Source: an uncultured archaeon (GTDB lineage: Archaea; Nanobdellota; Nanobdellia; Pacearchaeales; GW2011-AR1). Taken from it: a stretch of DNA of 64,000 nucleotides. The stretch's first letter is position 1. The number at the start of each line of letters is the position of its first letter. A model generated the notes under the pieces. The model made no database searches. It was not told the origin of the DNA and saw only the letters and a program-made list of their open reading frames with translations. Shown piece after piece: positions 12,759 through 57,200 of the stretch. The position numbers and the translations under genes are program-made. The stretch lies in the NCBI GenBank assembly GCA_903866625.1, contig CAIPOI010000008.1, positions 2,652 to 66,651 on the forward strand, written 5' to 3'.

Positions 12759-13403
12759 ATGGATAATATAAATAATAAAAGAATAAGATATTACTCGGTT
12801 TGGTTAAGTTTAGTTTGCGTTTTAGTTTTTATTATTCAGAATATTATTCCAGGATTTACTGAAACTTTTTATCTTACTCAAGATGCTTTAACTCGGCCTT
12901 GGCAGTTCTTAACTGCGATTTTTTTGCATGGAAGCGTTGCTCATCTACTTTATAATATTTTTGCACTCATTTTATTTGGTATAATGCTTGAAACTATTAT
13001 TTGGAGCAAGAAGTTTCTTGGTTTATTTTTAATTTCAGGTATTCTTGCAAATATAGCTTCATTTCATTTTTATTCTGCTTCACTGGGAGCTTCTGGTGCT
13101 ATAATGGCTATACTTGGTTGTCTAGCAGTTTTAAGACCTTTGATGACTGTTTGGGCTTTTAATTTACCTATGCCTATGTTTATTGCTGCATTATTATGGG
13201 TTGGCGGTTCTGTTCTTGGAATTTTTGGATTTGGAGATCAATCAACAGGACATCTTGCTCATCTTTCGGGTATTGTTCTTGGAGTTTGTTATGGTTTTTA
13301 TTTGAGGTTTAGATATCGTAACAAAAATCAAGCTGGTTTTACTCAAAAGATAGTTTTAGATGAAAATTCTATGAGAAAGTGGGAAGAGGGGTATTTGAGA
13401 TAA
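12759..13403 (+). CDS. Rhomboid-family intramembrane serine protease
   Basis: Multi-TM protein with FLHGSVAHLLYN (H-x4-H-x3-N) and catalytic GASGAIMAILG (GxSG), plus a downstream His (GHLAHLSG). Confidence 0.88.
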   Translation: MDNINNKRIRYYSVWLSLVCVLVFIIQNIIPGFTETFYLTQDALTRPWQFLTAIFLHGSVAHLLYNIFALILFGIMLETIIWSKKFLGLFLISGILANIASFHFYSASLGASGAIMAILGCLAVLRPLMTVWAFNLPMPMFIAALLWVGGSVLGIFGFGDQSTGHLAHLSGIVLGVCYGFYLRFRYRNKNQAGFTQKIVLDENSMRKWEEGYLR

Positions 13404-17069: not shown

Positions 17070-17207
17070 GAGCCCATAGCTCAGCCCGGTTAGAGCACCG
17101 CTCTTATAGGTATAGATTCCGTTAGGAATTTACTTTCGTGCTCCCAGTTTTAGGATTGGGGCGGCTAAGAAAGGCGGGGGTCCGAAGTTCAAATCTTCGT
17201 GGGCTCA
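17070..17207 (+). tRNA. tRNA-Ile (anticodon TAT) interrupted by a 63-nt intron at the canonical 37/38 position
   Basis: Acceptor GAGCCCA/TGGGCTC, D arm GCTC-AGCCCGGTTA-GAGC, anticodon stem CCGCT/GGCGG, loop C-T-TAT-A | intron | A, T arm CGAAG-TTCAAAT-CTTCG, discriminator A. The anticodon is at 17105-17107. Confidence 0.8.
17109..17171 (+). other. tRNA intron with bulge-helix-bulge splice motif
   Basis: Exon CTTA (17103-17106) pairs with intron TAAG (17166-17169) to form a 4-bp helix. It is flanked by the 3-nt bulges TA|G (17107-17109) and AA|A (17170-17172). Both predicted cuts fall after the second bulge nucleotide, as in archaeal BHB substrates. Confidence 0.7.
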
Positions 17208-29948: not shown

Positions 29949-32900
29949 ATGGTGTTCAAAAAATATTCTGTTAAGAATGGAAAAAAGTATGGGCCCTATT
30001 TGTATCACAATGAACGTGTAGGAGAAAAGGTCGTTACTTCTTATGTTGGTAGGGGAAAAGAAGAAAAATCCCGACGGTTATCTAGTCCACTAATCGCTTT
30101 TGTTTTAGTTTTAGCATTTTTAGTTCTTGCTTTGGTTTTTTTTGTTTTATACAAATCTTCTCCTACAGGTTTTGTTTCTTTGGAAGTTCAACCGCAGTAT
30201 AATCTTGGCGAAAATTTGAATGGTATTGTAAATTTTAATTTTAAAAAAGGAGAATTAATTCCCAGTGATTCTAAAATTCTAATTAGTTTGGGCAGTCAAT
30301 CCAAAGAAGTTTCTTTAGCGAGTTTAATAGATGATCATATTATTTCTGGAGATTATTATGCTGAACAACATCCATTAAATGGTGCTGGTGAGGGATATGG
30401 TGTAATAGGTGAAAAAATAAGTTATCCTACAATTGACTTTGAACTTCTTATAAAAAATCAAGAAGAAAGTTCTGAAACTTCTAGTTCAACTGATTCTTCT
30501 GAAACTTCTGCTCCTGAAACTCCAACAACAGAAGAAATACAAACTACTGAAACTTCTGAACAAACAACCGAAACTTTAACTCAGGAAAATACCGAAACTT
30601 CCACAATTTCAACTTCTCCAGAAACAACAGAAAGTTCTGAAGCTTCAAGTTTTGAGAGTTCTTCTTCAACAGATTCATCTTCAAGCGAAAGTTCATCAGA
30701 TTCTGATAGTTCTTCTTCAAGCGATACAAGTTCAAGTGAATCTTCATCATCTTCGGATTCTGGTTCTTCTGATAGTTCTGGTGGAGATAGTGGTGGAATA
30801 ACTGGAAATGTAATTGAAGAAAATGAATTTACAGTTTCAGGAAGTGTAAGTAATGGCGAAAATTTTGAATATAATCTTGATGATGGTCGAAGTGCAGAAT
30901 TTGTTCCTGGAAGCGCAAAAATTAATGGAGAGAGTGTGGATGATAGTCTTATAAGCATAAGGGAGTCTTCTGGAAAATTAATTGCTAGTACTGATTACAC
31001 TATTAAAGAAGAAGGTTTTGGCAGAGATTATCTTGGTAATTTTGGTTTGAGTCTTCCTATCGATTTAGGAAAATTAGGAATAACTGCTGAACAAGGAATT
31101 CTTAATATAGAAATTATTGCTCAAGATTCTGCAATTGCTCATTCTGAACAGATAATAGGCATAAGACCTGAATCAATACCTACAAATACTTCACTTGAAT
31201 TTGTTAAAGATATACCTCAACAAAGAATAAAATCTGGAGATTCAATAGAACTAAATCTTAGAGAGTATTTTACTGGTGCAGAGCAATATGCTTTTGAAGC
31301 TAATAATATAACTGCTAAGATAGATGATTCTAGCGGATTAATTACTTTAGTTGCAGATGAAGGATTTAAGGGTGCGAAAAAAGCAAAGATTATTGCTATA
31401 AAAGGTAGTGAACAGGTTGAATCTAACGAGTTTAATATTCTTGTAAGTTCTGGAGCTATTAATATAGACACTACTCATACTCCTATAAAGGTAGGGGAAG
31501 AGGTTAAATGGACTCAAAAGATAAATCTTGAAACACCTGAAGCTATAACTATTGATTTACCTAAAGATGCAGAAAATGTAAACATCTCCAAACTTGATGT
31601 TAATTTAGAACAAGTTCCTGTTTCAGAAACTAATGTTGAAAGTTCTGATTCTGGTTTTAGTTTAACTGGAAATGTTGTTATTGATATAGAACTTCATAAT
31701 CAACCAAGAATAATAACTATCCTAAAAAATTTCTTTTCAGGTATGACTGGAAATGTTATTGAGGGCCAAGAAGAAGTTAATGCTGAAACTTCAATAACTC
31801 CTACAGAAACTCAAGAGGTTACTATAACTGATGCTTCTACGCAATATACTGTTGAATATACTACTCCAGCTCCAACTGCTGAAGAAATTAGCACAAGAGA
31901 AGGAAAGCAAGTTACAGTTTCAGCTGAGGATAGCCTTGGATATAAAGATGTTTTAGCTTATGCAAATATTCCTGAGGTTTATTCAGTTGGACAAGAAAAT
32001 TCTATTAAAATTTACTGGGCAAATAATGATTCTTACTTGCCTTTTGATGCTTATGATTTAGATGGAAATGGCAAAATAGATTATATTGAATGGATTGTTC
32101 CTCATTTATCTAATCAAACTTTTGAAATTATTTTGATAACTAAGGCTATGCAGTTAGATTCTAATAAAAATGTTGTTCAAGATATTTATAATCTGGTTGG
32201 AAAGAAAGATGGTGTTAGTGCTTATATCTCTGAACAAAATTATATTCAAGTAATGTTCGAGCAAAATCTTACTCTTGGAAAAGATATGACTGTTTATGCT
32301 AAGGGTATTGGAATGATTTATGTTTATAATGTTAATTCTAATGATCCCATTGGTGAGATTAGTGTTAATAGTCCTGATATAAAAGAATATAAAATTTATC
32401 CAAGCTATACTTTCGGAGATAGTTATGATTTAAAGATAACTGGAAATATTGAAGTGGATTATATTGTTGATCCTATTGATTGTTCAAGTTATGGTTTTTC
32501 TGATTGTCAAGCTAATTCTCTTTGTACTGTTAATACTGATCCAAATATTTGTAGTTCTTATGGTTCCTATGAATCTTGTTCTGGGGCTTCTGATTTTGGT
32601 TGTTCTCCAAGTATGAATGGAGATTGTAGCATATATGGGGGGACGGGCATGGATAGTGATTGCTACAATAATCCTGGTTGTTCTGCAGATTATACGCAAA
32701 GTTGTGAGGGATTAGGTGAAAATGATTGTGGAGTTGGTTCTTATTCTAGTTGTACTCCGGTGCCCTTTGATTGTGGGACTTTTTCAAATATAGATGATTG
32801 TAATATGCAAAGCGGAAACGGTTGTGTAAGTAATACTGACTCTTGTTCCAATTTAGCTTATCCTGATTGTACTTCGGTAACTGGTTGTAGTGATTACTCG

Positions 32901-35900
32901 GATCATTGCGAGGGTACTTATTTAACAAGTTGTTCTGGTGGGAATTTTGCTTCTTGTAGTGGTACTTATGCAGGTTCTTATAATAATAATTGTCTGAATA
33001 ATCCTGGCTATTTTATTAGTTGCTCAGGAGATTATTTCACGGGTTGTTCCGGAACTATTTATCTAAATGGCGATAGTGGTTGTAGTAGTAGTCCGAATAA
33101 TTGCGAGGATGGTACTTCTTGTATTTCCTACAGTGATTCTACTATTTGCACTAATGGTGCTGAAGGAAGTGCTTGTAATTCCAATGGTGTTTGTACTTCA
33201 GGTTATTGTTCTGCACCTATCGGTATATGTACTAATGGCTCAGTTAATTCTGGTTGTATTGATAGTTCTAGTTGTGTAGGAGGTTTATGCGCTTCTAATA
33301 ATAAATGTGGCGGTTTGGTTGGTGATAGTTGTGAAACTGTTAGCTGTCAAACTGGATATTACTGCGGTATTTATACTTGTACAACAGGAGAAACAGGTTC
33401 AGAATGTAATGATAATGGTGATTGTATTTCTCAGAGCTGTAGTGATGGTTATTGTATTTCTCCAGATCCTGCTTTAATTGCGAAATACAGTTTTGAAAAT
33501 AATGCTGATGATAGTTCTGGAAATAATAATAATGGTATTTGGGGCGGTGTACAAAGTAGTATAGCTTATACAACAGGAGTTTCTGGTCAAGCTGCAAGTT
33601 TTAATTCAGAAACTTATGTTAATGCTTCAATAACAGGTATACCTACTGGGTCTCAACCTAGAACTTATGCTTTCTGGATTAACTATGCTCAGGATGAAAA
33701 TACAATTATGTTTTCTCAGGGTACTACTTCTTCTAATGATGCTTTCTATATGTTTAGATATGGTCCTAATAATGGAGATATTTCTGGAAAAATGGTAGTT
33801 GGTATTTGGGGTTCTGGTAGTTATAATGGCGTCTCTTTATCAACAGTTTCTACAAATGAATGGCATCATGTTGTAGTTTCTTATAATGGGACCTATGTTG
33901 ACTTTTATTTAGATGATGTTTTACAAAGTTCGCAAGCAGCAACTTATAGTACAAGTTCTGGAAATTTATTCATTGGTAAGTTTGATCCAGAACAATATAA
34001 TAGTTATTTGTTTGTAGGCGCTATGGATGAGTTCCAAGTTTATAATTATGCTTTGAGCTCTAGCGATGTAACAACACTATATAATTCTTATAGCTCAACT
34101 CCTGCTTTAATAGCAGAATATGATTTTGAAAATAATGCAAATGATGCTCTTGGTGTGAATAATGGAACATGGGCTGGAGAAGGAAATCTTAATCAATATG
34201 CTGCAGGAGTTTCTGGGCAAGCCGCTTATTTTGATGGAGCGAGTTATATTACTACTCCTTTAACTATCTCAAGTATTCCTTTAACAGTTTCTGGTTGGTT
34301 CTATATAACTTCAACAGAACCTGGAAATCAATGGCTTCTTGGAGCTGATGATGGTAATGGTAATACTGTTGGAGTGGACCTTTGGTATAATCAATTCCAA
34401 AACTTTTATGGAACTGGTTATGAAAATACTGGAGTTTATATTACTCCTAATACTTGGACTTATCTAACCTATACGATTAATTCCAGTGAGTCTAAACTTT
34501 ATGTTGATGGACAACTAGCTTATACTGGTTCTGCTGGAGAGTCACCAAGTTCAACTGCTGTAACTATTGGTGCAAATGGAAATGCGGCTTCAAAAGTTAA
34601 TGGTTATATTGATGAATACAAAGTTTATAACTATGTTTTAACTGCTGAGGAAATAAATACGTCATTTAATTCACTTGCAGTTTTGGGATGTATGAATTCA
34701 AGTGCTATAAACTATAATCCTTCTGCAAATATAGATGACTCAAGCTGCACTGGAAGAATTGGAGATAGTTGTGATCCTAGTAGTGATCCAAGTACTCAAT
34801 GCGTTTCTGGTTATTGTAGCGGTTCTTCTTTCGTTTGTTCTAGCGGAGAAATTGGAGTTTCATGCGATGATATTTATAATCAGGCTTGGCAATGTTCTTC
34901 AAGTCGTTGTGTAGATGGTTATTGTGCTGCAGCTTTGGCAGGTCATGGAGAATCTTGTGCTTTAATTGAGTGTTCACAATCTCCAGATGGTCAGATTTGT
35001 AATACTTATGATTATACTTGTACTTGGGGACAGATTGGAGAACCTTGTAATACGGGTGATGAGTGTCCTTATGCAAGTAACATTTGTGGAAGTAATAATC
35101 TTTGCGGGGCTAATAATGGAGATTTATGTAGCGGTGGTGAACCTTGTCAGTCTAGTTATTGTTTGGATGATTCTCTTGCAGGTTACACTGGTTCTGGTGC
35201 TATTTGTTCAGATAAATCTATTGGTTCGCCTTGTTCGACTACTAATCAAGCAACAGAATGTAGTAGTGGTTATTGTTCTGGAGAGCCAGGAGTTTGTTCA
35301 TTAAAATCTAATGGTGTTCCTTGTTCAGCTGATGGAGAATGTAGTTCTGGAGTTTGTGGAACTAATAATTTGTGTGGAATTACGCTTGGAACTACTTGCG
35401 ATGATAATTCAAAATGTCAATCAGGTTATTGTGGTTATGGTGATGGAAGAGTTTGTACTACTGGAGAAAATGGTCAGGGATGTACATCTGGAGGAAATGA
35501 TCAATGTATTTCTGGGATTTGTAATGAACTTTATTATGATAACTTTTTCTGTGTAGGCAGTGATGGTCAAGATTGTACTATAAATGAGTATAGTGGTTTA
35601 GGTTATTGTAATTCTACTTATTGTGGTTCTGATTCAAAATGTACTGATAAACAGATTGGTTCACATTGTGGGAATGCAACAGATTGTGATTCTCAAATTT
35701 GTATCTCTAATATTTGTGCTTCAGATACAATTTATCCTCAAGTAAGCTTTGCAACAGGAACTCCCGATGACGCTTCATCTCAATCGAGAACAAGCATTTA
35801 TGCAGATGTAAATGTAGTAGAAGATAATTTTGCTAACTTAACAATTTATTTATATAATACTAGCTTAGTAAGTTCTCAAACTTTTACAAATTCAGTTAGA

Positions 35901-37097
35901 GCTTATAACTTTACTTCACTTGCTGATGGAACTTATTACTTGAATGCAACTGCTTGCGATCTTGCTAATCAATGCAACTCTACAGAAACAAGAACAATAA
36001 CTATTGATAGTGTTGCTCCAACTATAACCTTTATCCAAACCACACCTAATAACAATAGTTATATGGATGCTTCACCTTCAGGAGTTTTAACTGTTAATGT
36101 TTCTGCAACTGGAACTCTTTCAACTATAACTTTTGATTTGATAAATTCTTCAGGTTCACATAACTTTACAACTTACTCTGGTGCTCAAGCTCTTAGTGTT
36201 AGAGGATATTCTTGGGTTATACCTGCTGGAGCAGATGGAACTTATACTTACAAAGTAAATGTTACAAAGACTAATGGTTTAAGTGCTACATCTGCGGTTA
36301 GAACTATAAATGCTCTGCCTTCTTGTTTAGAGCAGTGTTCTGAAGGCGCAGAAAGTGATTGTAATATTACTTTAGATTGTTACTTATTCAGTACTCTTTG
36401 TACTAACTCTGTTTGTGACTTTAGAAATTTAGAAGTTGGAGCAAAGATTAGAACACTTTATGATCCTACTACTGGAGATGCTCTTAATTTAGCTATTAAT
36501 TTAAGTGGAAATCTAAGTTTTGTTTATGGTGCAGGAGAAATAATCTTCTCAGGAAGAGAGGGAAGTGATTTAGGAACAGGAAGTGCTGGTGGAGATGCTT
36601 CAATTGTTAATATAACTGTAGCTAATCTTTTGAATACTCGTTACGCTGTGTTTAAGGGTCTTGGTGGAAAATCAACTGCTGCAGCTACTAATGGTGGAAA
36701 TGGTGGAAGTTTAGTTTTGAATTACAGAGGTTTGATTGGAAATTTCAGTGATGCTGCTGATTTAGGTAGTTACTGGGATGATAATCTACAAGACTCTGTA
36801 AACTATGCAGATAATGCTCCAGCTATGACTGGTGGAGCAAATGCTCTTGATGCTGTTACAGGAAGCACTGGAACAATAGTTTACAATAAAAATATTGATT
36901 GTACTGTTCAACTAAGAGATGCGGATATAACTGGGGATGGTCTAATTGGTGCTGCCGACTGGGGAATAATACAAGAGGATTATAATGATAGGAGCGGAGT
37001 AGATTCAAATTACTCAGCAGCTTATGATATTAATTGCGATAATATCTTGAATATCAAAGAAATTGCTAAGATAGGATTCCAAGTTGGAACAAGATAG
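29949..37097 (+). CDS. Giant membrane-anchored surface protein (2382 aa): Cys-rich repeats, 2x LamG, Ig-like repeats, C-terminal dockerin-like module
   Basis: Uninterrupted ORF. N-terminal basic motif MVFKKYSVKNGKKYGPYLYHNERVGEKVVTSYVGRG, then a TM helix. S/T/E-rich linker. EF-hand loop DLDGNGKIDYIE. More than 10 copies of the G-x2-C-x(4-9)-C-x-SGYC-type motif. Two LamG modules. Ig-like repeats ending T-I-D-S-x-x-P. Dockerin-like C-terminus. Confidence 0.85.
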   Translation: MVFKKYSVKNGKKYGPYLYHNERVGEKVVTSYVGRGKEEKSRRLSSPLIAFVLVLAFLVLALVFFVLYKSSPTGFVSLEVQPQYNLGENLNGIVNFNFKKGELIPSDSKILISLGSQSKEVSLASLIDDHIISGDYYAEQHPLNGAGEGYGVIGEKISYPTIDFELLIKNQEESSETSSSTDSSETSAPETPTTEEIQTTETSEQTTETLTQENTETSTISTSPETTESSEASSFESSSSTDSSSSESSSDSDSSSSSDTSSSESSSSSDSGSSDSSGGDSGGITGNVIEENEFTVSGSVSNGENFEYNLDDGRSAEFVPGSAKINGESVDDSLISIRESSGKLIASTDYTIKEEGFGRDYLGNFGLSLPIDLGKLGITAEQGILNIEIIAQDSAIAHSEQIIGIRPESIPTNTSLEFVKDIPQQRIKSGDSIELNLREYFTGAEQYAFEANNITAKIDDSSGLITLVADEGFKGAKKAKIIAIKGSEQVESNEFNILVSSGAINIDTTHTPIKVGEEVKWTQKINLETPEAITIDLPKDAENVNISKLDVNLEQVPVSETNVESSDSGFSLTGNVVIDIELHNQPRIITILKNFFSGMTGNVIEGQEEVNAETSITPTETQEVTITDASTQYTVEYTTPAPTAEEISTREGKQVTVSAEDSLGYKDVLAYANIPEVYSVGQENSIKIYWANNDSYLPFDAYDLDGNGKIDYIEWIVPHLSNQTFEIILITKAMQLDSNKNVVQDIYNLVGKKDGVSAYISEQNYIQVMFEQNLTLGKDMTVYAKGIGMIYVYNVNSNDPIGEISVNSPDIKEYKIYPSYTFGDSYDLKITGNIEVDYIVDPIDCSSYGFSDCQANSLCTVNTDPNICSSYGSYESCSGASDFGCSPSMNGDCSIYGGTGMDSDCYNNPGCSADYTQSCEGLGENDCGVGSYSSCTPVPFDCGTFSNIDDCNMQSGNGCVSNTDSCSNLAYPDCTSVTGCSDYSDHCEGTYLTSCSGGNFASCSGTYAGSYNNNCLNNPGYFISCSGDYFTGCSGTIYLNGDSGCSSSPNNCEDGTSCISYSDSTICTNGAEGSACNSNGVCTSGYCSAPIGICTNGSVNSGCIDSSSCVGGLCASNNKCGGLVGDSCETVSCQTGYYCGIYTCTTGETGSECNDNGDCISQSCSDGYCISPDPALIAKYSFENNADDSSGNNNNGIWGGVQSSIAYTTGVSGQAASFNSETYVNASITGIPTGSQPRTYAFWINYAQDENTIMFSQGTTSSNDAFYMFRYGPNNGDISGKMVVGIWGSGSYNGVSLSTVSTNEWHHVVVSYNGTYVDFYLDDVLQSSQAATYSTSSGNLFIGKFDPEQYNSYLFVGAMDEFQVYNYALSSSDVTTLYNSYSSTPALIAEYDFENNANDALGVNNGTWAGEGNLNQYAAGVSGQAAYFDGASYITTPLTISSIPLTVSGWFYITSTEPGNQWLLGADDGNGNTVGVDLWYNQFQNFYGTGYENTGVYITPNTWTYLTYTINSSESKLYVDGQLAYTGSAGESPSSTAVTIGANGNAASKVNGYIDEYKVYNYVLTAEEINTSFNSLAVLGCMNSSAINYNPSANIDDSSCTGRIGDSCDPSSDPSTQCVSGYCSGSSFVCSSGEIGVSCDDIYNQAWQCSSSRCVDGYCAAALAGHGESCALIECSQSPDGQICNTYDYTCTWGQIGEPCNTGDECPYASNICGSNNLCGANNGDLCSGGEPCQSSYCLDDSLAGYTGSGAICSDKSIGSPCSTTNQATECSSGYCSGEPGVCSLKSNGVPCSADGECSSGVCGTNNLCGITLGTTCDDNSKCQSGYCGYGDGRVCTTGENGQGCTSGGNDQCISGICNELYYDNFFCVGSDGQDCTINEYSGLGYCNSTYCGSDSKCTDKQIGSHCGNATDCDSQICISNICASDTIYPQVSFATGTPDDASSQSRTSIYADVNVVEDNFANLTIYLYNTSLVSSQTFTNSVRAYNFTSLADGTYYLNATACDLANQCNSTETRTITIDSVAPTITFIQTTPNNNSYMDASPSGVLTVNVSATGTLSTITFDLINSSGSHNFTTYSGAQALSVRGYSWVIPAGADGTYTYKVNVTKTNGLSATSAVRTINALPSCLEQCSEGAESDCNITLDCYLFSTLCTNSVCDFRNLEVGAKIRTLYDPTTGDALNLAINLSGNLSFVYGAGEIIFSGREGSDLGTGSAGGDASIVNITVANLLNTRYAVFKGLGGKSTAAATNGGNGGSLVLNYRGLIGNFSDAADLGSYWDDNLQDSVNYADNAPAMTGGANALDAVTGSTGTIVYNKNIDCTVQLRDADITGDGLIGAADWGIIQEDYNDRSGVDSNYSAAYDINCDNILNIKEIAKIGFQVGTR
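30087..30152 (+). other. N-terminal transmembrane helix of giant protein 1
   Basis: PLIAFVLVLAFLVLALVFFVLY, preceded by KEEKSRRLSS (positive-inside rule). Confidence 0.7.
30463..30795 (+). repeat. Ser/Thr/Glu-rich low-complexity linker (coding)
   Basis: ESSETSSSTDSSETSAPETPTTEE...SSSSDSGSSDSSGGDSGG, built from reiterated TCT/AGT/GAA/ACT codons. Confidence 0.85.
32481..33455 (+). repeat. Cys-rich repeat array 1 of giant protein 1
   Basis: Dense Cys spacing, for example GSACNSNGVCTSGYCS, GDSCETVSCQTGYYCG, GSECNDNGDCISQSCSDGYC. Confidence 0.75.
33468..34100 (+). other. LamG/ConA-like domain 1
   Basis: PALIAKYSFENNADDSSGNNNNGIWGG...GQAASFNS...WHHVVVSYNGTYVDFYLDD...GAMDEFQVYNYALSSSDV. Confidence 0.75.
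34101..34670 (+). other. LamG/ConA-like domain 2
   Basis: PALIAEYDFENNANDALGVNNGTWAG...GQAAYFDG...WTYLTYTINSSESKLYVDG...GYIDEYKVYNYVLTAEEI. Confidence 0.75.
34686..35719 (+). repeat. Cys-rich repeat array 2 of giant protein 1
   Basis: GDSCDPSSDPSTQCVSGYCSG, GVSCDD...CSSSRCVDGYC, GSPCSTTNQATECSSGYCSG, GVPCSADGECSSGVCG, GTTCDDNSKCQSGYCG, GSHCGNATDCDSQICISNIC. Confidence 0.75.
36918..37085 (+). other. Dockerin-like double calcium-loop module at the C-terminus of giant protein 1
   Basis: DADITGDGLIGAADWGIIQEDY ... YDINCDNILNIKEIAKIGF: two D-x-D/N-x-D/N-G-x-I...D/E loops, each followed by a helix. Confidence 0.55.
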
Positions 37098-37159: not shown

Positions 37160-37987
37160 ATGAATAAAAAATCTAGTTTAAGAGCTTTAACAGCAGCAGG
37201 ACTTATAGGTTTAGCAGGAGTTCTAACTTCTCAATCTGCTAAGTCTAATGTTATTATTGGCTATACGGTTTGTGATACCAACAATGTTGATGTAGGAACA
37301 AATCTTGTTGTAAATACACCTTATAGGGTTGGAGTTTATTTAGATTCTACTCCAGAATCTACTGTTGGAATAAATAATGCTGATTGGGATATTTTATTAC
37401 CTTATGGGGGAGGTTATACTAATTATCTAGCTGTTACTGGAGCTTCTTTACCTAATCATAATACTACTGAAGATTTCTTTTATAATTTAAGTATGAATTC
37501 TGGTTTGAATAGAGTAGATTCTACCCCCAATAGTCTTGGTCAACTTGACGACAATTGGAGAGATGTTAATGGAACAACTTCTGGAAGAACAAATGCTTGG
37601 GGATATCTTGGATGGTTGAATGTTACTTTTACTAATACTTTTACTAATAAAAAGTTTACCCTCTCTGCAGCACATGTAACTGATACTGCTGGACAATCAA
37701 AGGCCATAACCTACAACAACCCTTATCTTAATGTCAACGCGATACCAGAACCAACAACTGCTGCTTTGTACTTAATGGGTGTGCCTGCAATAGTTTATGC
37801 AGCGAGACGCAGAAGAAAAGAACTTAATTTAGAATCTGAAACTGATAGACAGGTGTCTATTGAAGCTCGAGTTGCAGAAGCAGAACTTAATAAAAGAAGT
37901 AAAATAAGAGATTGGCAACAACAAATTGGAAGAAAATGCAGAAGATATTCTCCTTCGGTTGAAGTTGCTTTGCCTCAAGCAGCGTAA
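37160..37987 (+). CDS. Secreted protein with internal PEP-CTERM-like anchor and ~55-aa basic cytoplasmic tail
   Basis: Signal-peptide-like N-terminus LRALTAAGLIGLAGVLTSQSAKS. AIPEPTTAALYLMGVPAIVYAARRRRKE at 37742-37819 has the form PEP + hydrophobic helix + Arg cluster. The ORF then continues for ~55 codons. Confidence 0.65.
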   Translation: MNKKSSLRALTAAGLIGLAGVLTSQSAKSNVIIGYTVCDTNNVDVGTNLVVNTPYRVGVYLDSTPESTVGINNADWDILLPYGGGYTNYLAVTGASLPNHNTTEDFFYNLSMNSGLNRVDSTPNSLGQLDDNWRDVNGTTSGRTNAWGYLGWLNVTFTNTFTNKKFTLSAAHVTDTAGQSKAITYNNPYLNVNAIPEPTTAALYLMGVPAIVYAARRRRKELNLESETDRQVSIEARVAEAELNKRSKIRDWQQQIGRKCRRYSPSVEVALPQAA

Positions 37988-39385: not shown

Positions 39386-40402
39386 ATGATTAATTCACCA
39401 AAACGAGACGAACAGAAATCAGTAGTAGAAGATAAAGCATTTAATAATAAAATTAAAACTTGCTCTGATAAGATTCTTCTTTTAAAAAAGGAGATGAGTA
39501 AGGCTGTTGTTGGTCAAGAAACTATCATAAATGCGCTGATAAGGGCTTTAATCTGTAATGGACATGTTTTAGTAGAAGGAGTTCCAGGAGTTGCTAAAAC
39601 TTTTGTTATAAAGTGCCTTGGAACTGTTTCTGGTTGCGAGGTTAAAAGGGTTCAGTTTACAGTAGATTTGTTACCTACCGATATAACGGGTCAAACTATC
39701 TATCATCAGGGAAAGGGCTTTGAGTTAGTTAAGGGACCTGTTTTCGCAAATTTTCTTATTGCAGATGAAATAAACCGATCTCCACCAAAAACTCAATCGG
39801 CCTTACTAGAAGCGATGCAAGAAAAACAGGTAACTGTTGGAAAAGAGACTTTAGATCTACCAAAACCTTTTTTTGTTATGGCTACCCAAAATCCTTTAGA
39901 ACAAGCAGGAGTTTATACTTTACCCGAAGCACAAGTAGATAGATTTATTTTTAAATTAATTATGGGTTATCCTACTAAGGAACAAGAGAGAACTATTCTT
40001 AGGCAGAATACTGATTTAAGCAGTTTTGATAATTTTGATTTAAAAAAAATAGTTTCTCCTAAGGATATTCTTGAAATGCAAGAACTTGTAAAAAAAGTTT
40101 ATATCAGCAAAGAAATTGAGGAGTATATTATTAATATTGTTGCTCTAACCCGTAGTAAACAAGGAAGATTAGCAAAATATATTGATTGGGGTGCCTCTCC
40201 AAGGGCGAGTATAAGTTTATTTAGTGCCGCAAGAGCAGAGGCTTTTATGAACTCAAGAAGTTTTGTTATTCCGCAAGATGTTAAAAAAGTTGCACATGAT
40301 GTTTTGAGACATAGAATTTTGCTTAACTATGAAGCAGAAGCAGATAATATAACCTCTGATGCCCTTATAGAAGAGATACTAAATGAAATCCAAGTACCAT
40401 AA
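39386..40402 (+). CDS. moxR: MoxR-family AAA+ ATPase
   Basis: GHVLVEGVPGVAKT (Walker A), FLIADEINRSPPKTQSALLEAMQE (Walker B / sensor), VMATQNPLEQAGVYTLPEAQVDRF. Confidence 0.92.
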   Translation: MINSPKRDEQKSVVEDKAFNNKIKTCSDKILLLKKEMSKAVVGQETIINALIRALICNGHVLVEGVPGVAKTFVIKCLGTVSGCEVKRVQFTVDLLPTDITGQTIYHQGKGFELVKGPVFANFLIADEINRSPPKTQSALLEAMQEKQVTVGKETLDLPKPFFVMATQNPLEQAGVYTLPEAQVDRFIFKLIMGYPTKEQERTILRQNTDLSSFDNFDLKKIVSPKDILEMQELVKKVYISKEIEEYIINIVALTRSKQGRLAKYIDWGASPRASISLFSAARAEAFMNSRSFVIPQDVKKVAHDVLRHRILLNYEAEADNITSDALIEEILNEIQVP

Positions 40403-40407
40403 TTCCT

Positions 40408-41310
40408 ATGAAAAATCTGAATGTAGATTTTCCTAGAGCAGTAACCCATTTTGAGGCTGCAATGAAATCTCAACTTCTTATAAAAACTGTTTTCTATAAG
40501 AGAATATTTGGTGGCAAGGGTTTTGAATTTGATTCTTATAGGATGTATTCTCCTGAGAATGATGATGCTGGATTAATAGACTGGAAAGCAAGTATGAGAA
40601 ACCCCGCTAAAACTTTGGTGAGACAGTATGTTGAAGAAAGAGATCTTAGAATATTTTTAGTAGTAGATGTGGGTGATAATATGATCTTTGGTTCTGGCAA
40701 CAAATTAAAGAACGAAGTCGCTGCAGAAATAACTGCGGCTTTATGTCATTTGGTATTAAGCTCGGGAGATAGTATTGGTGTGGTTTTATATAGTGATAAA
40801 CTCGTTAAAATTATTCCTCCTTCGGGAGGTATGGCTCAATTTCATGCAATTGTAAAGGCACTTAAAAATCCTAATAACTATGGCGGTAAATCTGATATGA
40901 AACGAGTTCTAAAATATTTATTACCCAGTTTAAAAAATATTTCTGCAGTTTTTATTTTATCAGATTTTCTTAATTTAGATGATGAAACTCTAAAAACTAT
41001 CAAAACTTTTTCAAGTATTTATGAAACTGCGGGCATAATGCTTAGAGATAGAGTAGATTCTTCCCTCCCAAATATTAAGAATGAAGTAATTGTAGAAGAT
41101 ATTTATACTGGCCAGCAAAAAATTATAAATCCCTCTTTAATCCGCGAACAATATCAAGCTTATTCTAATGAGCAGAAAAACAGGATTATTAATGTTTTTA
41201 AGAAGACTGGCTCCGATATCTTAGATTTATCTACAGATGAAGATTTTGCTATAAGTCTTTCAAAATTCCTTAAAAATAGAGCTAAAAAAAGAAAATTTCG
41301 CAACAACTAA
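40408..41310 (+). CDS. DUF58-domain protein (MoxR partner)
   Basis: YRMYSPENDDAGLIDWKASMR is the DUF58 signature, followed by a VWA-like fold (FLVVDVGDNM). Lies 5 nt after moxR. Confidence 0.85.
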   Translation: MKNLNVDFPRAVTHFEAAMKSQLLIKTVFYKRIFGGKGFEFDSYRMYSPENDDAGLIDWKASMRNPAKTLVRQYVEERDLRIFLVVDVGDNMIFGSGNKLKNEVAAEITAALCHLVLSSGDSIGVVLYSDKLVKIIPPSGGMAQFHAIVKALKNPNNYGGKSDMKRVLKYLLPSLKNISAVFILSDFLNLDDETLKTIKTFSSIYETAGIMLRDRVDSSLPNIKNEVIVEDIYTGQQKIINPSLIREQYQAYSNEQKNRIINVFKKTGSDILDLSTDEDFAISLSKFLKNRAKKRKFRNN

Positions 41311-41397
41311 TGTTGTTTTAGCAAGAATCTTTAAGGAAGAAGAATTAAAAAGAGAGGATAACTGATAATATTAAGGTAATAAAATAAAAGAGGAAAA

Positions 41398-42321
41398 ATG
41401 TTTATTATATTTACTAGGCCGATGTATTTGTTTTTTATTTTAGTCATACCTCTGATAATCTTTTTTCATATAATCTCAATTACACTTTCAAAAAGAAAAG
41501 CTATTAAGTTTGCTAATTTTGATGCTATATCTCGAGTTCAGGGTTCAGATGTTTTCTCGAAAAATTTAACTTTACTCTATATTCACTTAGCTGTTGTGCT
41601 TTTAATTGTTTTATCAGTTTCTGGTACAAGTCTTGTTGCTTCTGTTGAAGCTACAGATCAATCTTTTGTTTTGGCTATAGATGCTTCAAGAAGTATGTCT
41701 GCAACAGATATTGCTCCTACTCGAATGGAAGTTGCCAAGGTTGCAGCAAAAGACTTTCTTAAAATGATGCCCCCACAAACAAGAATAGGAGTCTTATCTT
41801 TCTCAGGTACAACTTATATCGAGCAAGATATGACTAATGATGAATATTTAGTAAGGTCTGCAATTGAAAATATAAATATAAAAAACGTGGGCGGTACAGA
41901 TTTTTTGAGTATGTTCGCAGCGGCAACAAACATGCTTAGAGATGAAGAAACAAAAAATGTTATTTTAATAAGTGATGGTTCTGCTAATCTAAATGATATT
42001 CAAACCATTAATGATTATTTACAAAAGAATAGGGTTGTTGTTTATTCTTTAGGCGTAGGAACCTCTGAGGGCGGAAGTGATAGTTCTGGTGGAGAATTTA
42101 AGCTTTCAGAGGATACACTTAATATAATTTCGGAAAATAGCGGTGGTAAGTATTATAACATCAATAACTTGGAGGATTTTTATTCTTCTTTTAACGAAAT
42201 TCTTAGTCTATCTAAGAAGAATATAGTCTTTGATTTGTCGCTTTATCTAATGATTGGCGCATTATTACTTTTTGTTATAGAATTCATACTGATGAACACA
42301 AGATTTAGAACTCTGCCTTAA
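41398..42321 (+). CDS. von Willebrand factor A domain membrane protein (BatA-like)
   Basis: N-terminal TM helices, MIDAS-type FVLAIDASRSMSATD, ILISDGSAN, C-terminal TM helix. Confidence 0.85.
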   Translation: MFIIFTRPMYLFFILVIPLIIFFHIISITLSKRKAIKFANFDAISRVQGSDVFSKNLTLLYIHLAVVLLIVLSVSGTSLVASVEATDQSFVLAIDASRSMSATDIAPTRMEVAKVAAKDFLKMMPPQTRIGVLSFSGTTYIEQDMTNDEYLVRSAIENINIKNVGGTDFLSMFAAATNMLRDEETKNVILISDGSANLNDIQTINDYLQKNRVVVYSLGVGTSEGGSDSSGGEFKLSEDTLNIISENSGGKYYNINNLEDFYSSFNEILSLSKKNIVFDLSLYLMIGALLLFVIEFILMNTRFRTLP

Positions 42322-51218: not shown

Positions 51219-51256
51219 CCTAAAAAACCATATTTTTATTGAGTTACATTACGCTC

Positions 51257-54200
51257 ATGGTTTATAAGAGGTATATAAAAAGAGGGGGGAAGGTTTTTGG
51301 ACCGTATTATTATGAAAGTCATAGAAATTCTAATGGTAATGTAACTACAAGTTATGTTAAATCTAAACCTAAAAATAATTCGATTAATTCTTTGTTAATG
51401 TTTGTTTTAGTGGGGCTTATTTTATTTGGAATATTTTATTATTTTGAAAATTCTTCGAATATTAACTCTAATTTATCTAATTTCAAACCATTATTACACT
51501 ACAGTTTTACAGGTAATGTAATCGATGAAGGTGGTTCAGATTCTTCTCCATCTAGTTCTGAAGCGTCTTCTACTTCTGATTCTTCTACTGCCTCCACTTC
51601 TTCTACTTCTTCATCAGATTCCAGTCCTTCTTCTGATAGTTCTTCTATTTCTACGGAAACTCAAACAACCGAAGCGACTCCTGAAGCTATAACTGAAGCT
51701 TCTACTGAGACTCAAATTTCTGAACAAATAACAGAAACAAGTTCACCTGACTCGGGTTCTTCTGATAGTTCCGGAGCTGAAACAACAATAAATTCTGAAT
51801 ATAATGAAACTACTCCTATTGAAATTACTCAAAATGATTCTATTAACGAAAACAATCAAACGATAAATGAAACTTTAGAATTTGTAAATTCTACATTAAT
51901 CAACGAAACTTTTACAAATGAAACTCTAATTAATAATACTTCACTAGATGAAACTCTAATCAATCAGACCTTAACGAATCAAACTTGGAATAATGAAACT
52001 CTAATCAATGAGACTTTTTATTCTGCTAATTTAACAATTCAAACTAAACAGTATCAGGCGGTTATTAATCGACCGGTTAAATGGATTAAAATTATTAATG
52101 TGACTAATGAATCTGCGATTGATGAGATTCTTTCTGAAGTTCGCAATATTTCTATTGATTTGCCTAAAGAGGCAACAGAAATCCAAATAAAAACAGGTTC
52201 CGACATAGAACAAAGTCTTAGTAATGCTGAAAATTATGCAGAAGAATTTAATCAATCTGTTAGCAAGGAAGATATTGCTCCTGGAAGTATGACTGGATTA
52301 GTTATAAGTGAATCTAATAATTTTGGGATTATCACCCGAGTCTATAACTGGTTATTAGGTCTTTTTAAGAGCAGTCAGATTACTGGCAATGTAGTTGAAG
52401 ATCAAGGTTCTTTTGAAGTTCAAGATCAATTAATTGAAACTTCAGATTCAAAATCCTTGGATGTAGCTCCTTTAGTTCAAGAAATTGTTAATAATATTTC
52501 GGATAACAACTCTATAGCTATAGAGTATACTACTCCGGCTCCAATTGCCGAAGAAAATTTAACTTCGCAAGGAAAACAGATAACCATTTTATCAGAAAGC
52601 GAATATAATTATACCGAAATTTTAGCTTATACTTTAATTGATGATGTTACTGGAATGCAAAATATTCCTATTAATGATACTTCTAAAATAAAACTATACT
52701 GGTATGCTAGTACGGAAGATGCTAAAAAATATGGTTACTCTGAAAAATCTATAGAAGCTTCGGAAGAGTTTAAGATAGAAACTCTTCAGATAAACACTTC
52801 CAAATCTGATGAAGAAATTAATTCAAATCAAGAAGTTTTACCAAAATTTGAAGATAATACTAGCAATAATTCTGAGCAGATAATAAATTCAACAATAGAT
52901 AATGTTGCATCCGAACCAGCAACTTTAACTGCAGAAACTCAAACAACAGAAACAACTCAAGAAACCCCTACTGAAGATGTCGCAAATTCGGAAATAGCTA
53001 TTACAGGAAATGTTGTTGCATCTAATGAAGAGCCAGGAATGATTACTAAATTAGTGGGGGGTATTATGGGAATTACTGGAAATGTTATTGAAACCTCAGA
53101 AGATAATTTAAAAAACAACTCTAATAGTGAAGCTACTTCAGAAACTTTGGAAACTTCAAATCAAAATAATCTGATAAAAGTAGAAGTTAGTTATAATGCT
53201 TATGATTTAGATGGGGATGGTTTTGTAGATTATATTGAATGGGTAGTTCCGCATCTTTCTACTCAAACTTATCAGCTTATTTTAATTACTAAAGCAGAGC
53301 ATTTAGATTCTAATAGAAATTCTATTGAGGACATTTATAATTTTGTTAAATCTTTGGATAGTTCACTATTTGCTGTTCCTAACGGGGATTATATCAGAGC
53401 CAAATTTGAGAAAAATTTAACCATTGGAAAAGATATGACTCTTTATGCAAATGGGAGCGGGGTTGTAAGAGTTTACAATGAAAATAAAAATGATTCTATC
53501 GGAGAATTTTTAATTAATTCTGAAAATATTTCTGAATACAAAATTTATCCTAACTATACTTCTTCAGATACTTATGATCTTGGGTTTATGGGTAATATAA
53601 GCGTAGACTATATTGTTGACCCTCTAACCTGTCCAGATGCTGGTGGAAATTGGGTAGTATCTAATAATTATGTTCTTAGTACTTCTGTAAACTGTTCTAC
53701 TATAACTATTGGTAACGGAGTTACTTTAATAATTAATAGCACTGCTGCGGGAAATCAGTCCGTGAATTTAAGTGCCTTTAACATTACTATTTCTGCTGGT
53801 GGAATTATTAATGGTAACGGAACAGGATACTTGGGGGGTTTAACCGGAAATCCCGGCACAGCAGGATTTGGTCCTGGCGGCGGTGGTTATGGTACTTATG
53901 GTGGTGGCGGTGCAAGCCATGCTTCTGCCGGAGGTGCAGGTTCAAATGGTGCCGCAAATCTTACTATTTATGATTCTGTAACACAACCTATTATGCCAGG
54001 TTCTGGTGGCGGAGGAATTTATACTGGTAGGGGTACTAGTGGTAATGGGGGTAGTGCAATTTATCTCTATCTTTATGATACTCTTGTTAATAATGGAAGT
54101 ATTTTTGTAGATGGTACTAGTGGAAATAGCGGAACTACTACTTATTCCGGTGGCGGCGGTGGTTCTGGTGGAAGTATTTTTATTAATGCTTCTCAAGTAA

Positions 54201-57200
54201 ATGGTATTGGTATACTTTCAGCTGCAGGTGGAACAGGCGGAGCTACTACTCGATCTTCTTCTGGCGGCGGTGGTGGTGGTTCTGGTGGAATAATAAGTCT
54301 TATTGCTCGAGATTATGATAGTTATGCGGGTAGTTTGATAGTTTCATCGGGATCTGGATATTCTGGAACTGTTGCAGGCTCAGTTTATAGACCTGCATCA
54401 TCAACTCTAGGGAATGTGATAATTCCTTCAGGTCAAACTACTACTTGGACTCTTGGAAATTTTACTTTTAATAATTTTACTTTAGAATCCGGTGCTACTT
54501 TGCTTGTTGTAAATGCTGCTAGCCCCTCAAATTGTTTTGGTGGAATTGGTGGAGGTTCCGGTCCTGGAGTTTCTTCAAGTGGTTCTGGTGCGGGTGGTGG
54601 AGCAGGACATGGAGCTAATGGTGGAGCAGGAAGTTCTGCGGGTGGAACAGGCGGAGCTAGTTATGATAATTCTACCTGGCCTTCTATTATCGGTTCTGGC
54701 GGCGGTGGCGGAAGTTCAACCACTACCGCTATGCCTACTGGAGGTTTTGGGGGAGGACAGATTTATCTTAATGTTGTTAATACTGCTAATATAAATGGAA
54801 CTCTTTCAGCTGATGGAACCAATGCACTCACTGGAAGCAATGGTGGCGGCGGTGGTGGTTCTGGTGGAAGTATTTTGTTGAACTCTTCTAATTTTATTGG
54901 TAGTGGAACAATAACTGCGAAAGGTGGAAATGGAAGTTTATATGCAGGTAATACTGGCGGCGGTGGCGGAGCTGGAGGAAGATTAGGTATTTTCTTTACA
55001 ACAAGCCAGTATACTGGAACTTTAACTACTGCTAATGTTGCAGGAGGTAGTGTTAATCATACGAGTGCGGTTGCAGGAGGAACAGGAACTTTATCCATAT
55101 CTGATTTTATAGCCCCAACAATAGTTTATGATGGAACTTCTGAAAATACTAGTACTACTTTAACTGCAAGAAATAACATTTTTGTTAGTGCAACAGCTTC
55201 AGATGATATTAGTCTTGCTTCAATTAATATTACATTATACAATTCTCAAGGTTTGACTAATTATTCTGTGCAAACTTATGTAACTAATGCTACAAATACC
55301 TATACTTATAACTTTACTAATCTTGTTGATGGAGTTTATTCCTTTAATGCTACTGCCAAAGATAGCACTGGAAATTCTAATTCTTCAGGTTCAAGAACAG
55401 TAACTATTGATTATTTATCTCCTAACGCAGATTATTCTACTGGAACTGAGATTGCTTCATCTTATCTGCCAAGAAATTATGCCTTCGTTAATGTTAGCTC
55501 AACCGCTCCTGATGTTCAGAATGTTACAATTAATTTGTATAATACTAGTTTAGTTAATTCAACTCTTATTACTTCTGCTCCTTATCAACTTAATTTTACT
55601 AATCTTGCCGACGGAATTTATTATTTTAATGCTACTCTTAAGGATCCTACTCATTCAAATTCAACGACAACTAGGACGGTAACTATTGATACTATAAGTC
55701 CTCAACTAACTTTTGCTTATCCTGTTTCAGGAACAACTTATGAAGTTGATGTTACTAACTTTAGTTATAATTATATCGAAGCAAATCCTGCTTCTTGCTG
55801 GTATTCCTTGAATGGGGGAACAACTAATACTACAATTACCTGCGGCAATAATGTTACGGGTTTAACTGCTTCTTCGGGAAGCAATAGTTGGAATTTATGG
55901 ATGAATGATAGTGCGGGACATCTTACTAATAGTGCACTAACTTTTACTAAAAATATTTCAAGAATTAGTTTTTGCAGAACTCTTAGTGATTCTGGGGCTT
56001 ATACTGTTTTGAATAATATTAGTAGTGTTTCTGGTAACTGCTTAACGGTCAATTCTAATAATGTTATTATTGAGGGTAATGGATTTACTTTTAGTGGAGA
56101 TAGGGTAGGAGATGATTATGGAGTCTATATTAATGGCAGAAGCAATGTAACCGTTCAAAATTTTGGAAACATAACAAATTTTGCCAAGGGTGTTGGAGTT
56201 ATTTCCTCAAGCAATTGCTTAGTAAAAAATCTTTCTATAAGTTCTTCTACAGATCATGGTATCTATGTTCAGTGGGCTTCTACTAATACTTTTAGAGATT
56301 TAATATTAAATGGAAATGCTGGTGCTGGAATTTATGTAAACTTTTATGCAACTCTAAACAATTTGATTAATGTAACTGCCCAAGGCAATAGTGGAAATGG
56401 AATAGGGATAAATGATAATTCTAACAATAACACTTTAACTAATTGTACTGTTAGTGGGAATTCCCAAAGTGGTGTTGCTATATTGACCTCTGTAGGAAAT
56501 ACGTCTATAAATAATCTTTATTCCTCAAGCAATCTTGGAAGTGAAATTTATGATAATTCTGGGAACTCTAAGATTAATTATCTAAGATATGAAAATCAAT
56601 ATGGGAAGATTGAATGGACTAACACTAGTGATGGGAACTTTTTAAAAAATTTGGGTGTTGAAGGTTCGCTTATTCTTGGGCAAACCTTGAATATCACTCA
56701 GTCTTTTATAGCTTTAGCTACAAGCTCATTTAGCTCTAGTAATATTAGTTCTTCGGCTAATATAACCCTCTACGGAGTTAATACTAGTACTATAAGGCCT
56801 GTAGTTTATAGAAATTCTAGTGCTTTATGCACCTCGGTTTCTTCTCCAAGTTGTTATAATTTTACTAATCTTAATGTAGCTAATCCTGTGTTTAATATTT
56901 CTAGTTGGAGTAATTACACTATAATTGATTTAGGGAGTAGTTATCTTGGAATTACTATTAATAGTCCTGCAAATACTACTTATACAACTTCTAATATTCT
57001 AGTTAATTTATCTGTTCTAAATTCTTCTTCTACAACTTTTTATAATGGTAGTGCTAATAATACTTATACCACTCCAGCTAGCCATAGTTTCGGACAAGGA
57101 AGCACTAATCTTTTAGTTTATGCTACAGATGGTTACGGAAATTATAATGATGCAAATGTTGTATTTTTTGTGGATTCAATTTTGCCGCAAATAACAATTG

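Follow-up and report, generated by a model that had tools for sequence, protein, structure and literature searches.

A 64,000-nucleotide (nt) stretch of DNA from a Pacearchaeota/Woesearchaeota-type (DPANN) archaeon of lake water (the window, meaning this stretch at its full length) contains one uninterrupted open reading frame (ORF) at 29949-37097 on the plus strand, encoding a giant protein of 2382 amino acids (aa), P0001. With a probability of roughly 0.6, P0001 represents a giant adhesin-type cell-surface protein, in which an N-terminal chassis carries a payload of LamG domains and cysteine arrays, and a dockerin-like C-terminal cassette is docked on a cohesin-fold protein encoded by the neighbouring gene, P0058. 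The evidence that carries this assignment, drawn from sequence comparisons and predicted structures, is the architecture of the cassette, the predicted fold of P0058, and a strict linkage between the dockerin cassette and the cohesin-fold gene in related genomes.

The cassette occupies the last ~260 residues of P0001 and consists of a six-Cys linker, a Gly-rich module and a double Ca-loop ending in IGF.xxTR. The linker and Gly-rich module (aa 2125-2315; 36321..36893, plus strand), which resemble the X-module companion of dockerins, were matched at the C-termini of giant ORFs at four related loci (L002, L029, L035 and L046; phmmer E 1.6e-68 to 6.7e-27), where they always precede a dockerin-like end. 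The double Ca-loop (aa 2316-2382, ending IGFQVGTR; 36894..37097 with the stop codon, plus strand) was delimited using an alignment of five orthologous ends and the profile built from it. Its loops, DITGDGLIGAAD and DINCDNILNIKE (aa 2324-2379), have Asp, Asn or Thr at positions 1, 3 and 5 and Asp or Glu at position 12, and both are conserved in the five ends. They form two tandem 12-residue Ca-loops, each with a helix-forming segment behind it, at ~22 residues per repeat and with a short linker, the arrangement that defines dockerins. With the five-end profile, both loops (positions 14-62) aligned to dockerins of known structure (2b59_B, 2y3n_B and 3kcp_A; E ~2e-5), and Dockerin_1 (PF00404) ranked first among the Pfam families for each of the five orthologous ends (best E 3.3e-5). 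The corresponding copy in P0002 (3024 aa), the only full-length homologue of P0001 among 5.8 billion proteins, reached 19.8 bits against the Dockerin_1 cut-off of 22.9 bits. A PDB sequence search with the C-terminal 268 aa of P0001 returned nothing useful. The first-pass annotation of this DNA had described the C-terminus as dockerin-like, a description that holds at the profile level, over both loops and with a cohesin-fold neighbour, but not at the Pfam cut-off. We consider the module dockerin-like in architecture and predict that it binds a cohesin in a Ca-dependent manner. As a separate observation, a Nanoarchaeia metagenome-assembled genome (MAG) encodes, near a chassis-bearing giant, a 766-aa ORF with 4.4% Cys (L031, 1271-3568) and, at its start, several dockerin-type repeats of canonical form (DINNDGSIGAADLSLL...).

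P0058 (37160..37987, plus strand) starts 62 nt downstream of P0001 and comprises a signal peptide, a predicted cohesin-fold ectodomain, a PEP-CTERM-like anchor and a basic helical tail. Neither P0058 nor its orthologues had any Pfam match at E <= 10, P0058 had no PDB sequence match, and hhalign of the family against two genuine cohesin domains (from P0027/P0031) gave a probability of 0.1. The AlphaFold2 (AF2) model of the ectodomain (aa 30-195, 7-row alignment) showed predicted local distance difference test (pLDDT) scores above 90, and its top 47 Foldseek matches in the PDB were all cohesins, many from cohesin-dockerin complexes and including that of Archaeoglobus fulgidus (2xdh), with E 2.9e-7 to 3e-4, probability 1.00 and template-modelling (TM) scores of 0.64-0.75 normalised to the target. 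The predicted model contains the nine-stranded beta-sandwich typical of cohesins. Thus, P0058 is predicted to be a cohesin-fold protein and is proposed as the docking partner of the cassette.

The cassette and the cohesin-fold gene were strictly linked. A P0058 homologue lies directly 3' of the cassette giant in the window and at L002, L029, L035 and L046, with protein identities down to 19%. A hidden Markov model (HMM) of the P0058 family detected its gene at five of five cassette loci and at none of 27 cassette-less chassis giants, all complete and each followed by 900 nt or more of sequence (Fisher p = 5e-6, loci treated as independent). A search of metagenome contigs from the cohesin side (4-row alignment) found two loci, one from the same organism as L002 and the other, L059, a sixth independent locus, in which the P0058-family gene was again preceded by a cassette, bringing the co-occurrence to 6/6.

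The variants of P0058 differ in how they end. In P0058 itself, aa 194-220 (37739-37819) comprise IPEPTT, a transmembrane helix and RRRRK, a PEP-CTERM-like arrangement followed by ~55 extra basic helical residues; IPEP[TS]T with a transmembrane helix and basic residues is found in the window, L002 and L059 copies. Against PEP_CTERM model TIGR02595 (cut-off 16), P0058 scored 14.0 bits and the orthologues P0077, P0060 and P0076 scored 24.4, 17.8 and 15.9 bits, respectively. No exosortase or archaeosortase was found among the scanned window ORFs, a scan from which several ORFs, including all on the minus strand, were absent. The copies of L035 and L046 have no anchor, and the orthologue in a Pacearchaeota MAG (L029, 12502-13281) ends in a canonical double dockerin of its own (GDLNCDGLVNNGDIDPF... 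twice), similar to a cellulosomal adaptor scaffoldin, an architecture from which one or more additional cohesins can be expected in that genome.

P0001 is anchored by its N-terminal transmembrane helix, with a basic motif, this helix, an acidic stalk and a ~560-aa base containing a Ca-loop forming the chassis. The payload follows in the order of a LamG pair flanked by Cys arrays, two immunoglobulin (Ig)-like modules and the dockerin-like cassette. In the proposed mechanism, the cassette would most likely dock in a Ca-dependent manner onto P0058, and if P0058 is itself membrane-tethered through its PEP-CTERM-like helix, as appears to be the case in this genome, the giant protein would be held at both ends. 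Such a two-end tether would be the topology that a SPEARE-type paralogue reaches covalently with a second transmembrane helix. The LamG pair, located mid-chain between the arrays, would lie at the apex of the loop and face outward, where its ligand may be a carbohydrate or glycoprotein of a host or partner cell, and the Cys arrays would serve as stiff, protease-resistant legs. A tether at both ends is probable for P0001 and lowers the likelihood of a simple free fibre; the first-pass annotation had inferred an attachment fibre.

Several points weigh against this model. The double loop of P0001 scores below the Dockerin_1 gathering threshold (12.5-15.4 bits vs 22.9 in scans of the last 70-93 residues), and calmodulin-type EF-hand proteins score like dockerins on the cassette profile, most of them through one loop and a few (3pm8_A, 6hcs_A) over longer stretches. 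The cohesin assignment of P0058 derives from one AF2 model of a 7-row alignment, with no sequence support, and the linked loci are related, not phylogenetically independent. Of the six orthologues with the cohesin fold, no more than three (those of the window, L002 and L059) carry the PEP-CTERM-like anchor, so two-point anchoring is not general. The loop is the weakest step, because P0002 has one array only and half of the cohesin orthologues have no anchor, and disulfides in a probably oxygen-poor habitat are an assumption.

The low Dockerin_1 score and the equally high scores of calmodulin-type EF-hands would also suit an explanation that we consider unlikely, in which the double loop is a mere EF-hand-type Ca-binding cap, P0058 an unrelated, co-inherited beta-sandwich protein and P0001 a free, singly anchored fibre; no cohesin was recognized in P0058 by Pfam or hhalign, and operon neighbours can stay together for regulation alone. 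However, the dockerin matches cover both loops with dockerin spacing, whereas the EF-hand matches mostly involve one loop, and Dockerin_1 is the top Pfam family for each of the five orthologues. Coincidental inheritance is also difficult to reconcile with fold matches of P0058 that are exclusively cohesins in the top 47, with a cassette and cohesin-fold gene found together in 6/6 vs 0/27 loci even at 19% identity, and with the L029 copy, which combines the cohesin fold with a dockerin as an adaptor would.

Non-cellulosomal cohesin-dockerin pairs are known in archaea (Archaeoglobus fulgidus, PDB 2xdh). Like the A. fulgidus pair and cellulosomal pairs (the CipA type II X-dockerin with the SdbA/OlpB cohesins), P0001 has a two-loop dockerin end after a conserved companion module, and its predicted cohesin-fold partner is encoded next door, has a cell-surface anchor and occurs as an adaptor version in a relative. 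In contrast to cellulosomal pairs, P0001 and P0058 contain no glycoside hydrolases or carbohydrate-binding modules, P0058 is invisible to the cohesin family PF00963, and the P0001 dockerin falls below the PF00404 cut-off. The anchor of P0058 is PEP-CTERM-like and not of the SLH or sortase type, and the docked protein P0001 is itself membrane-anchored at its other end. A broader picture, which we put forward tentatively and at somewhat less than even odds, is that Pacearchaeota/Woesearchaeota-type DPANN archaea possess a cellulosome-style plug (a divergent X-dockerin) and socket (HMM-invisible cohesins in anchored, free and adaptor variants) for mounting giant adhesins. For P0001, this would mean a hold at both ends and a LamG pair displayed at the loop apex, with a previously unclassified four-Cys repeat as bracing.

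The Cys arrays are the most unusual part of the payload. P0001 contains 100 cysteines (4.2%, vs 0-1.9% in chassis-bearing relatives), 90 of which are clustered in two regions (44 in aa 845-1169 and 46 in aa 1581-1923), where Cys accounts for ~13% of residues compared to a mean of 0.93% in the other window ORFs. More than ten copies of a Cys unit in two arrays had been reported in the first reading of the sequence; they are present, and the units are of two kinds. Array 1a (aa 845-1033; 32481..33047, plus strand) comprises ~8-9 three-Cys units with a Cys spacing of ~8 residues, a pattern mirrored in P0002. Splitting at each Cys divided array 1b (aa 1034-1169; 33048..33455, plus strand) into 4-5 four-Cys units and array 2 (aa 1601-1923; 34749..35717, plus strand) into 11 such units. 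The four-Cys unit has the consensus [ST]-D-G-x-h-G-S-x-C-x4-D-C-x-S-G-Y-C-x4-7-C and a modal Cys spacing of 9-6-5-(5-8). Between the second LamG domain and array 2 (aa 1580-1600, 34686-34748) there is a two-Cys motif, GC-MNSSAINYNPSANIDDSS-C, which may resemble the 'C..A.NY.p.A..DDGSC' mini-repeat of other surface proteins.

Tandem Repeats Finder detected no DNA-level tandem repeats in the arrays, indicating that they are old, diverged protein repeats. The arrays, along with aa 285-560 and the Gly-rich module, had no match in Pfam and NCBIfam scans of the whole protein and of eight pieces, and for the arrays Pfam gave no match even at E <= 10. An exhaustive phmmer search of 1.84 billion representative proteins found only 15 matches to array 2, which hold runs of 2-26 four-Cys units, with arrays of 8-26 units in other surface, pilin-like and LamG proteins. 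Among these relatives, one combines an archaeal class III signal with beta-propeller repeats, two have N-termini of the bacterial pilin type, one ends in LamG and several are eukaryote-like secreted proteins. When four-unit segments were aligned (24 rows), conservation reached at least 90% in each of the 16 Cys columns, at a mean column identity of 26%. The Cys pattern is retained in P0002 and in unrelated surface and pilin-like proteins, and low-complexity drift, the possibility that had been named as fatal to the first-pass view, was rejected given Cys columns conserved across distant proteins and a confident AF2 model. On sequence grounds, the four-Cys repeat represents an extracellular module without a curated family, shared by archaeal and bacterial pilin-like and LamG proteins. 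Its cysteines are presumably disulfide-bonded.

The structure of four units of array 2 (units 6-9, aa 1754-1868) was predicted with a mean pLDDT of 82.7, and the model showed no significant Foldseek match in the PDB (E > 2). The nearest, non-significant shapes were knottin peptides, a trypsin inhibitor, colipase and LEAP-2 (TM scores of 0.67-0.79 normalised to the target over 26-32 residues, E > 2). Knottins are the top Foldseek neighbours of one Cys unit (root-mean-square deviations of 0.7-2.1 Å), but at E > 2 this carries no weight. The label 'Cys-knot-like' given to these repeats could not be maintained, and an inhibitor cystine knot was rejected, since no Foldseek match was significant and each unit has four Cys as opposed to the six Cys and three disulfides, in a threaded topology, of that fold. 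A profile of 41 single units compared with the PDB gave as best, marginal matches the first finger of the second cysteine-rich domain (CRD2) of Dickkopf-2 and Dickkopf-1 (E 0.025-0.3; Dickkopf-2 over 17 residues). The relative P0048 reaches Dickkopf_N (29.4 bits, cut-off 25), and other repeat relatives come near Colipase-like and DUF7107. The Dickkopf CRD and colipase fingers (PF04706, PF15083; 2jtk, 3s2k, 1eth) and DUF7107 share the motif G-x-x-C-x4-[DE]-C-x-S-G-x-C with the four-Cys unit, and for Dickkopf and colipase the predicted model also points to a common small, disulfide-rich hairpin geometry. However, Dickkopf and colipase have a single 10-Cys domain, whereas the unit described here has four Cys in 24-38 aa and is repeated head-to-tail 4-26 times. 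The P0001 arrays lack both a Pfam match to Dickkopf_N or colipase and a single 10-Cys domain; from these marginal similarities, the four-Cys unit may be described as a Dickkopf/colipase-finger-like module.

Colipase attaches to lipid interfaces, and LRP6 is a binding partner of Dickkopf. The arrays might accordingly be the working part of P0001, as multivalent Dickkopf/colipase/knottin-like fingers that bind a host-membrane lipid or protein or block a host protein, with LamG in an accessory role. The nearest sequence and fold neighbours of the unit are indeed binding modules (Dickkopf CRD2, colipase, LEAP-2, knottin toxins and inhibitors), and four-Cys repeats make up the main extracellular part of LamG-less pilin-like and propeller proteins. 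We find this quite unlikely, as all of these similarities are marginal (E 0.025 to > 2) and the unit surfaces are poorly conserved beyond Cys, Gly and the SG-aromatic motif, which fits a scaffold better than a specific site. In addition, P0002 has one array only, yet its LamG domains are multiplied.

The whole-protein Pfam scan of P0001 gave Laminin_G_3 (PF13385) alone above threshold, in two stretches (129.5 bits vs a cut-off of 27.6, E 1.5e-37), the best of which, aa 1222-1374, covers model positions 5-150 of 151; Laminin_G_2 reached 24.7 bits. This HMM scan bears out the two LamG/ConA-like domains recognized by eye in the first reading, and we place them in tandem at aa 1172-1377 and aa 1378-1578 (33462..34682, plus strand). 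Both begin with the repeated motif PALIA(K/E)Y.FENNA.D. A glucanase-type enzymatic role was considered and set aside, as their HMM matches include no catalytic family. The LamG pair may bind a glycan or a glycoprotein, in a superfamily whose ligand-site residues are not well conserved. The domains are followed, after array 2, by two Ig-like modules (aa 1926-2124; 35724..36320, plus strand). Ig-like repeats had likewise been claimed for this region, and Pfam remains below threshold there (aa ~1955-2030: Big_13 25.2 bits, cut-off 27; SdrD_B 23.1 bits), yet the modules share 38-44% identity with more than six Ig-like repeats of a second giant ORF in the window.

Giant surface proteins fill several percent of the genomes of DPANN archaea, in which they are the leading candidates for recognition of the host. 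LamG-rich giant surface proteins have been proposed to mediate DPANN-host attachment (PMC10266531), and other large extracellular proteins of Pacearchaeota and Woesearchaeota are on record (PMC8204110). A mainly structural, envelope or S-layer-associated P0001 that is tied down by the cohesin and has no role in binding other cells would suit both two-point anchoring, which would lay the protein on the archaeon's own surface, and the location of its gene in a surface island, next to a pilin-LamG gene and to genes for MoxR, DUF58, VWA and BatA, but it is very unlikely given a post-chassis payload that varies greatly between genomes, as is typical of interaction and host-range proteins, the single full-length homologue among 5.8 billion proteins, and the wide association of LamG with ligand binding and, in the DPANN literature, with host attachment (PMC10266531).

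The variable payload is carried on a conserved N-terminus. As first described, P0001 is an intact single ORF with an N-terminal transmembrane helix and an acidic Ser/Thr-rich stalk, and all features listed at that time were found at their positions. The basic cytoplasmic N-terminus (aa 1-46; 29949..30086, plus strand; 12 Lys/Arg vs 4 Asp/Glu) contains the conserved motif MVFKKYSVKNGKKYGPYLYHNERVGEKVVTSYVG. Its consensus, MV[FY]K[KR]Y..GK.[YF]GPY.Y, is common to P0001 and the second giant ORF, and the motif of this N-terminal segment (aa 1-75) also occurs in ~25 giant ORFs of related MAGs. The motif at aa 1-17 (29949-30000), KKYSVKNGKKYGPY, may loosely resemble KxYKxGKxW, a signal-peptide motif found in the serine-rich giant adhesins of Gram-positive bacteria; the NCBIfam scan of the whole P0001 reported no model of that type. 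The single transmembrane helix, a signal-anchor (aa 47-68; 30087..30152, plus strand), corresponds to the top 19-residue hydropathy window (mean 3.4), the sole one so strong. The stalk (aa 170-282; 30456..30794, plus strand) has 47 Ser, 21 Thr, 18 Glu and 8 Asp among 113 residues and is the sole site of DNA tandem repeats found in the P0001 gene by Tandem Repeats Finder.

The chassis ends with a base of ~560 aa that is conserved in sequence in related giants (aa 283-844; 30795..32480, plus strand) and includes a DxDxDG-type Ca-loop, DLDGNGKIDYIE (aa 703-714, 32055-32090). This loop had been called a canonical EF-hand loop; the 12-residue loop is there, but a helix-loop-helix is not, and the EF-hand Pfam models remained below threshold on P0001 (EF-hand_5, PF13202, 19 bits vs 25.9; PF00036, 16.6 bits vs 25.4). 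P0001 aa 682-845 share 55% identity with the second giant ORF. An alignment of this segment, searched with one genome per species, identified 55 loci with the chassis, mostly in MAGs labelled Pacearchaeota, Woesearchaeota or Nanoarchaeota, and the presence of the Ca-loop in these 55 loci is partly by construction, since the search patterns held part of it. Segment-wise phmmer searches showed that aa 1-845 recur in related giant ORFs, whereas everything beyond residue 845 differs. P0002 is 41% identical to P0001 over aa 283-1575. The comparison with giant ORFs of related MAGs that the first-pass annotation had recommended thus revealed a shared chassis and a variable payload, and by sequence the first 845 aa form a chassis that extends across the lineage, in at least 55 giant ORFs. 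Thirteen chassis loci came from MAGs with non-DPANN titles (L013, L016, L017, L020, L021, L023, L024, L026, L030, L036, L037, L041 and L043), namely Saccharibacteria, Staskawiczbacteria, Patescibacteria, Gastranaerophilales, 'bacterium' and Methanosarcinales. These are probably mis-binned low-GC DPANN contigs and possibly real transfers.

In the second giant ORF (51239-62203, plus strand; 3654 aa), Ig-like repeats are numerous, and Gly-rich stretches resemble a beta-helix. This ORF shares with P0001 the N-terminal motif, transmembrane helix, Ser/Thr-rich stalk, base and Ig-like repeats, and its C-terminus has a second transmembrane helix and a DUF87/HerA-type P-loop ATPase domain (47.3 bits), which identifies it from sequence as a SPEARE-type giant. 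The LamG giants of DPANN archaea (nanohaloarchaeal and SPEARE-type; PMC10266531, PMC6642349) are, like P0001, giant, membrane-anchored and acidic proteins with LamG and Ig-like domains and a presumed role in host attachment, and the SPEARE-type paralogue of the window has the whole N-terminal chassis in common with P0001. However, SPEARE-type giants have a second transmembrane helix and a cytoplasmic HerA/VirB4-like ATPase, whereas P0001 has one transmembrane helix and no P-loop domain. P0001 also differs from them in that its C-terminus is dockerin-like, with the cohesin-fold partner encoded by a gene of its own, and in its 90 array cysteines. The assignment of P0001 itself as a SPEARE-type giant was rejected, as it shares the chassis and Ig-like repeats only and lacks the second transmembrane helix and ATPase tail.

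In the library searched, no paper linked dockerins with Woese-, Pace- or Nanoarchaeota. Two elements were not found described: the conserved tandem, in Pacearchaeota/Woesearchaeota-type genomes, of a giant with the dockerin cassette and a cohesin gene that sequence searches miss, and the four-Cys repeat as a defined family. The cassette and its cohesin-fold partner constitute a small, soluble and expressible pair, which provides a concrete assembly model for a hypothetical giant protein. Because the P0058 family is visible by fold only, these results suggest that cohesins are under-counted in archaea. The four-Cys repeat merits a family definition and a solved structure, and the shared 845-aa chassis offers a handle for cataloguing the variable payloads of this class of giant proteins.

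P0058 is followed by another small anchored protein, P0059 (38074..39345, plus strand), which comprises a signal peptide, a beta-rich N-domain, a C-x2-W-x2-C motif, a weak CARDB-like domain, a helical region and a C-terminal transmembrane helix. It belongs to a family of 14 proteins that lacks any Pfam domain and is syntenic with the dockerin-cassette giants (L002 12797-14104, L035 12114-13433, L046 3554-4855). Its N-domain has the conserved motif NLYSYEINF / VYES.LD, and there is also a helical Cys pair; the Cys motif C-x2-W-x2-C...Q-x-R-x-C is thrombospondin-like. No similarity of this family to cohesin profiles or to the P0058 family was detected by hhalign, and a PDB sequence search with P0059 found nothing useful.

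The P0001 gene lies within a same-strand surface island, with a pilin-LamG gene on its 5' side and two small anchored proteins on its 3' side, followed by MoxR, DUF58, VWA and BatA genes. The upstream gene, P0062 (28668..29780, plus strand), encodes an archaeal type IV pilin-like N-terminus (TIGR02537, 25.3 bits, cut-off 20) fused to LamG (Laminin_G_3, 78.6 bits). This pilin/archaellin-type N-domain with LamG suggests a lectin-tipped pilin next to the giant LamG protein. The source of the DNA is indicated by archaeal flanking genes (ribosomal S28e, L7Ae and Kae1 in a Pfam scan of window ORFs), by the titles of MAGs with loci related to P0001 (nearly all Pacearchaeota, Woesearchaeota or Nanoarchaeota) and by an identical copy of the P0001 gene on lake-water metagenome contigs. 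A GC content of ~32% in the window and an intron-containing tRNA also fit an archaeal DPANN source; the tRNA gene has 138 nt (17070-17207, plus strand), a length that requires an intron. The MoxR AAA (AAA_3, 194 bits), DUF58 and VWA/BatA-like cluster occupies 39386-42321 (plus strand), directly 3' of the surface-protein genes, and a rhomboid-family intramembrane protease (90.6 bits) is encoded at 12759-13403 (plus strand).

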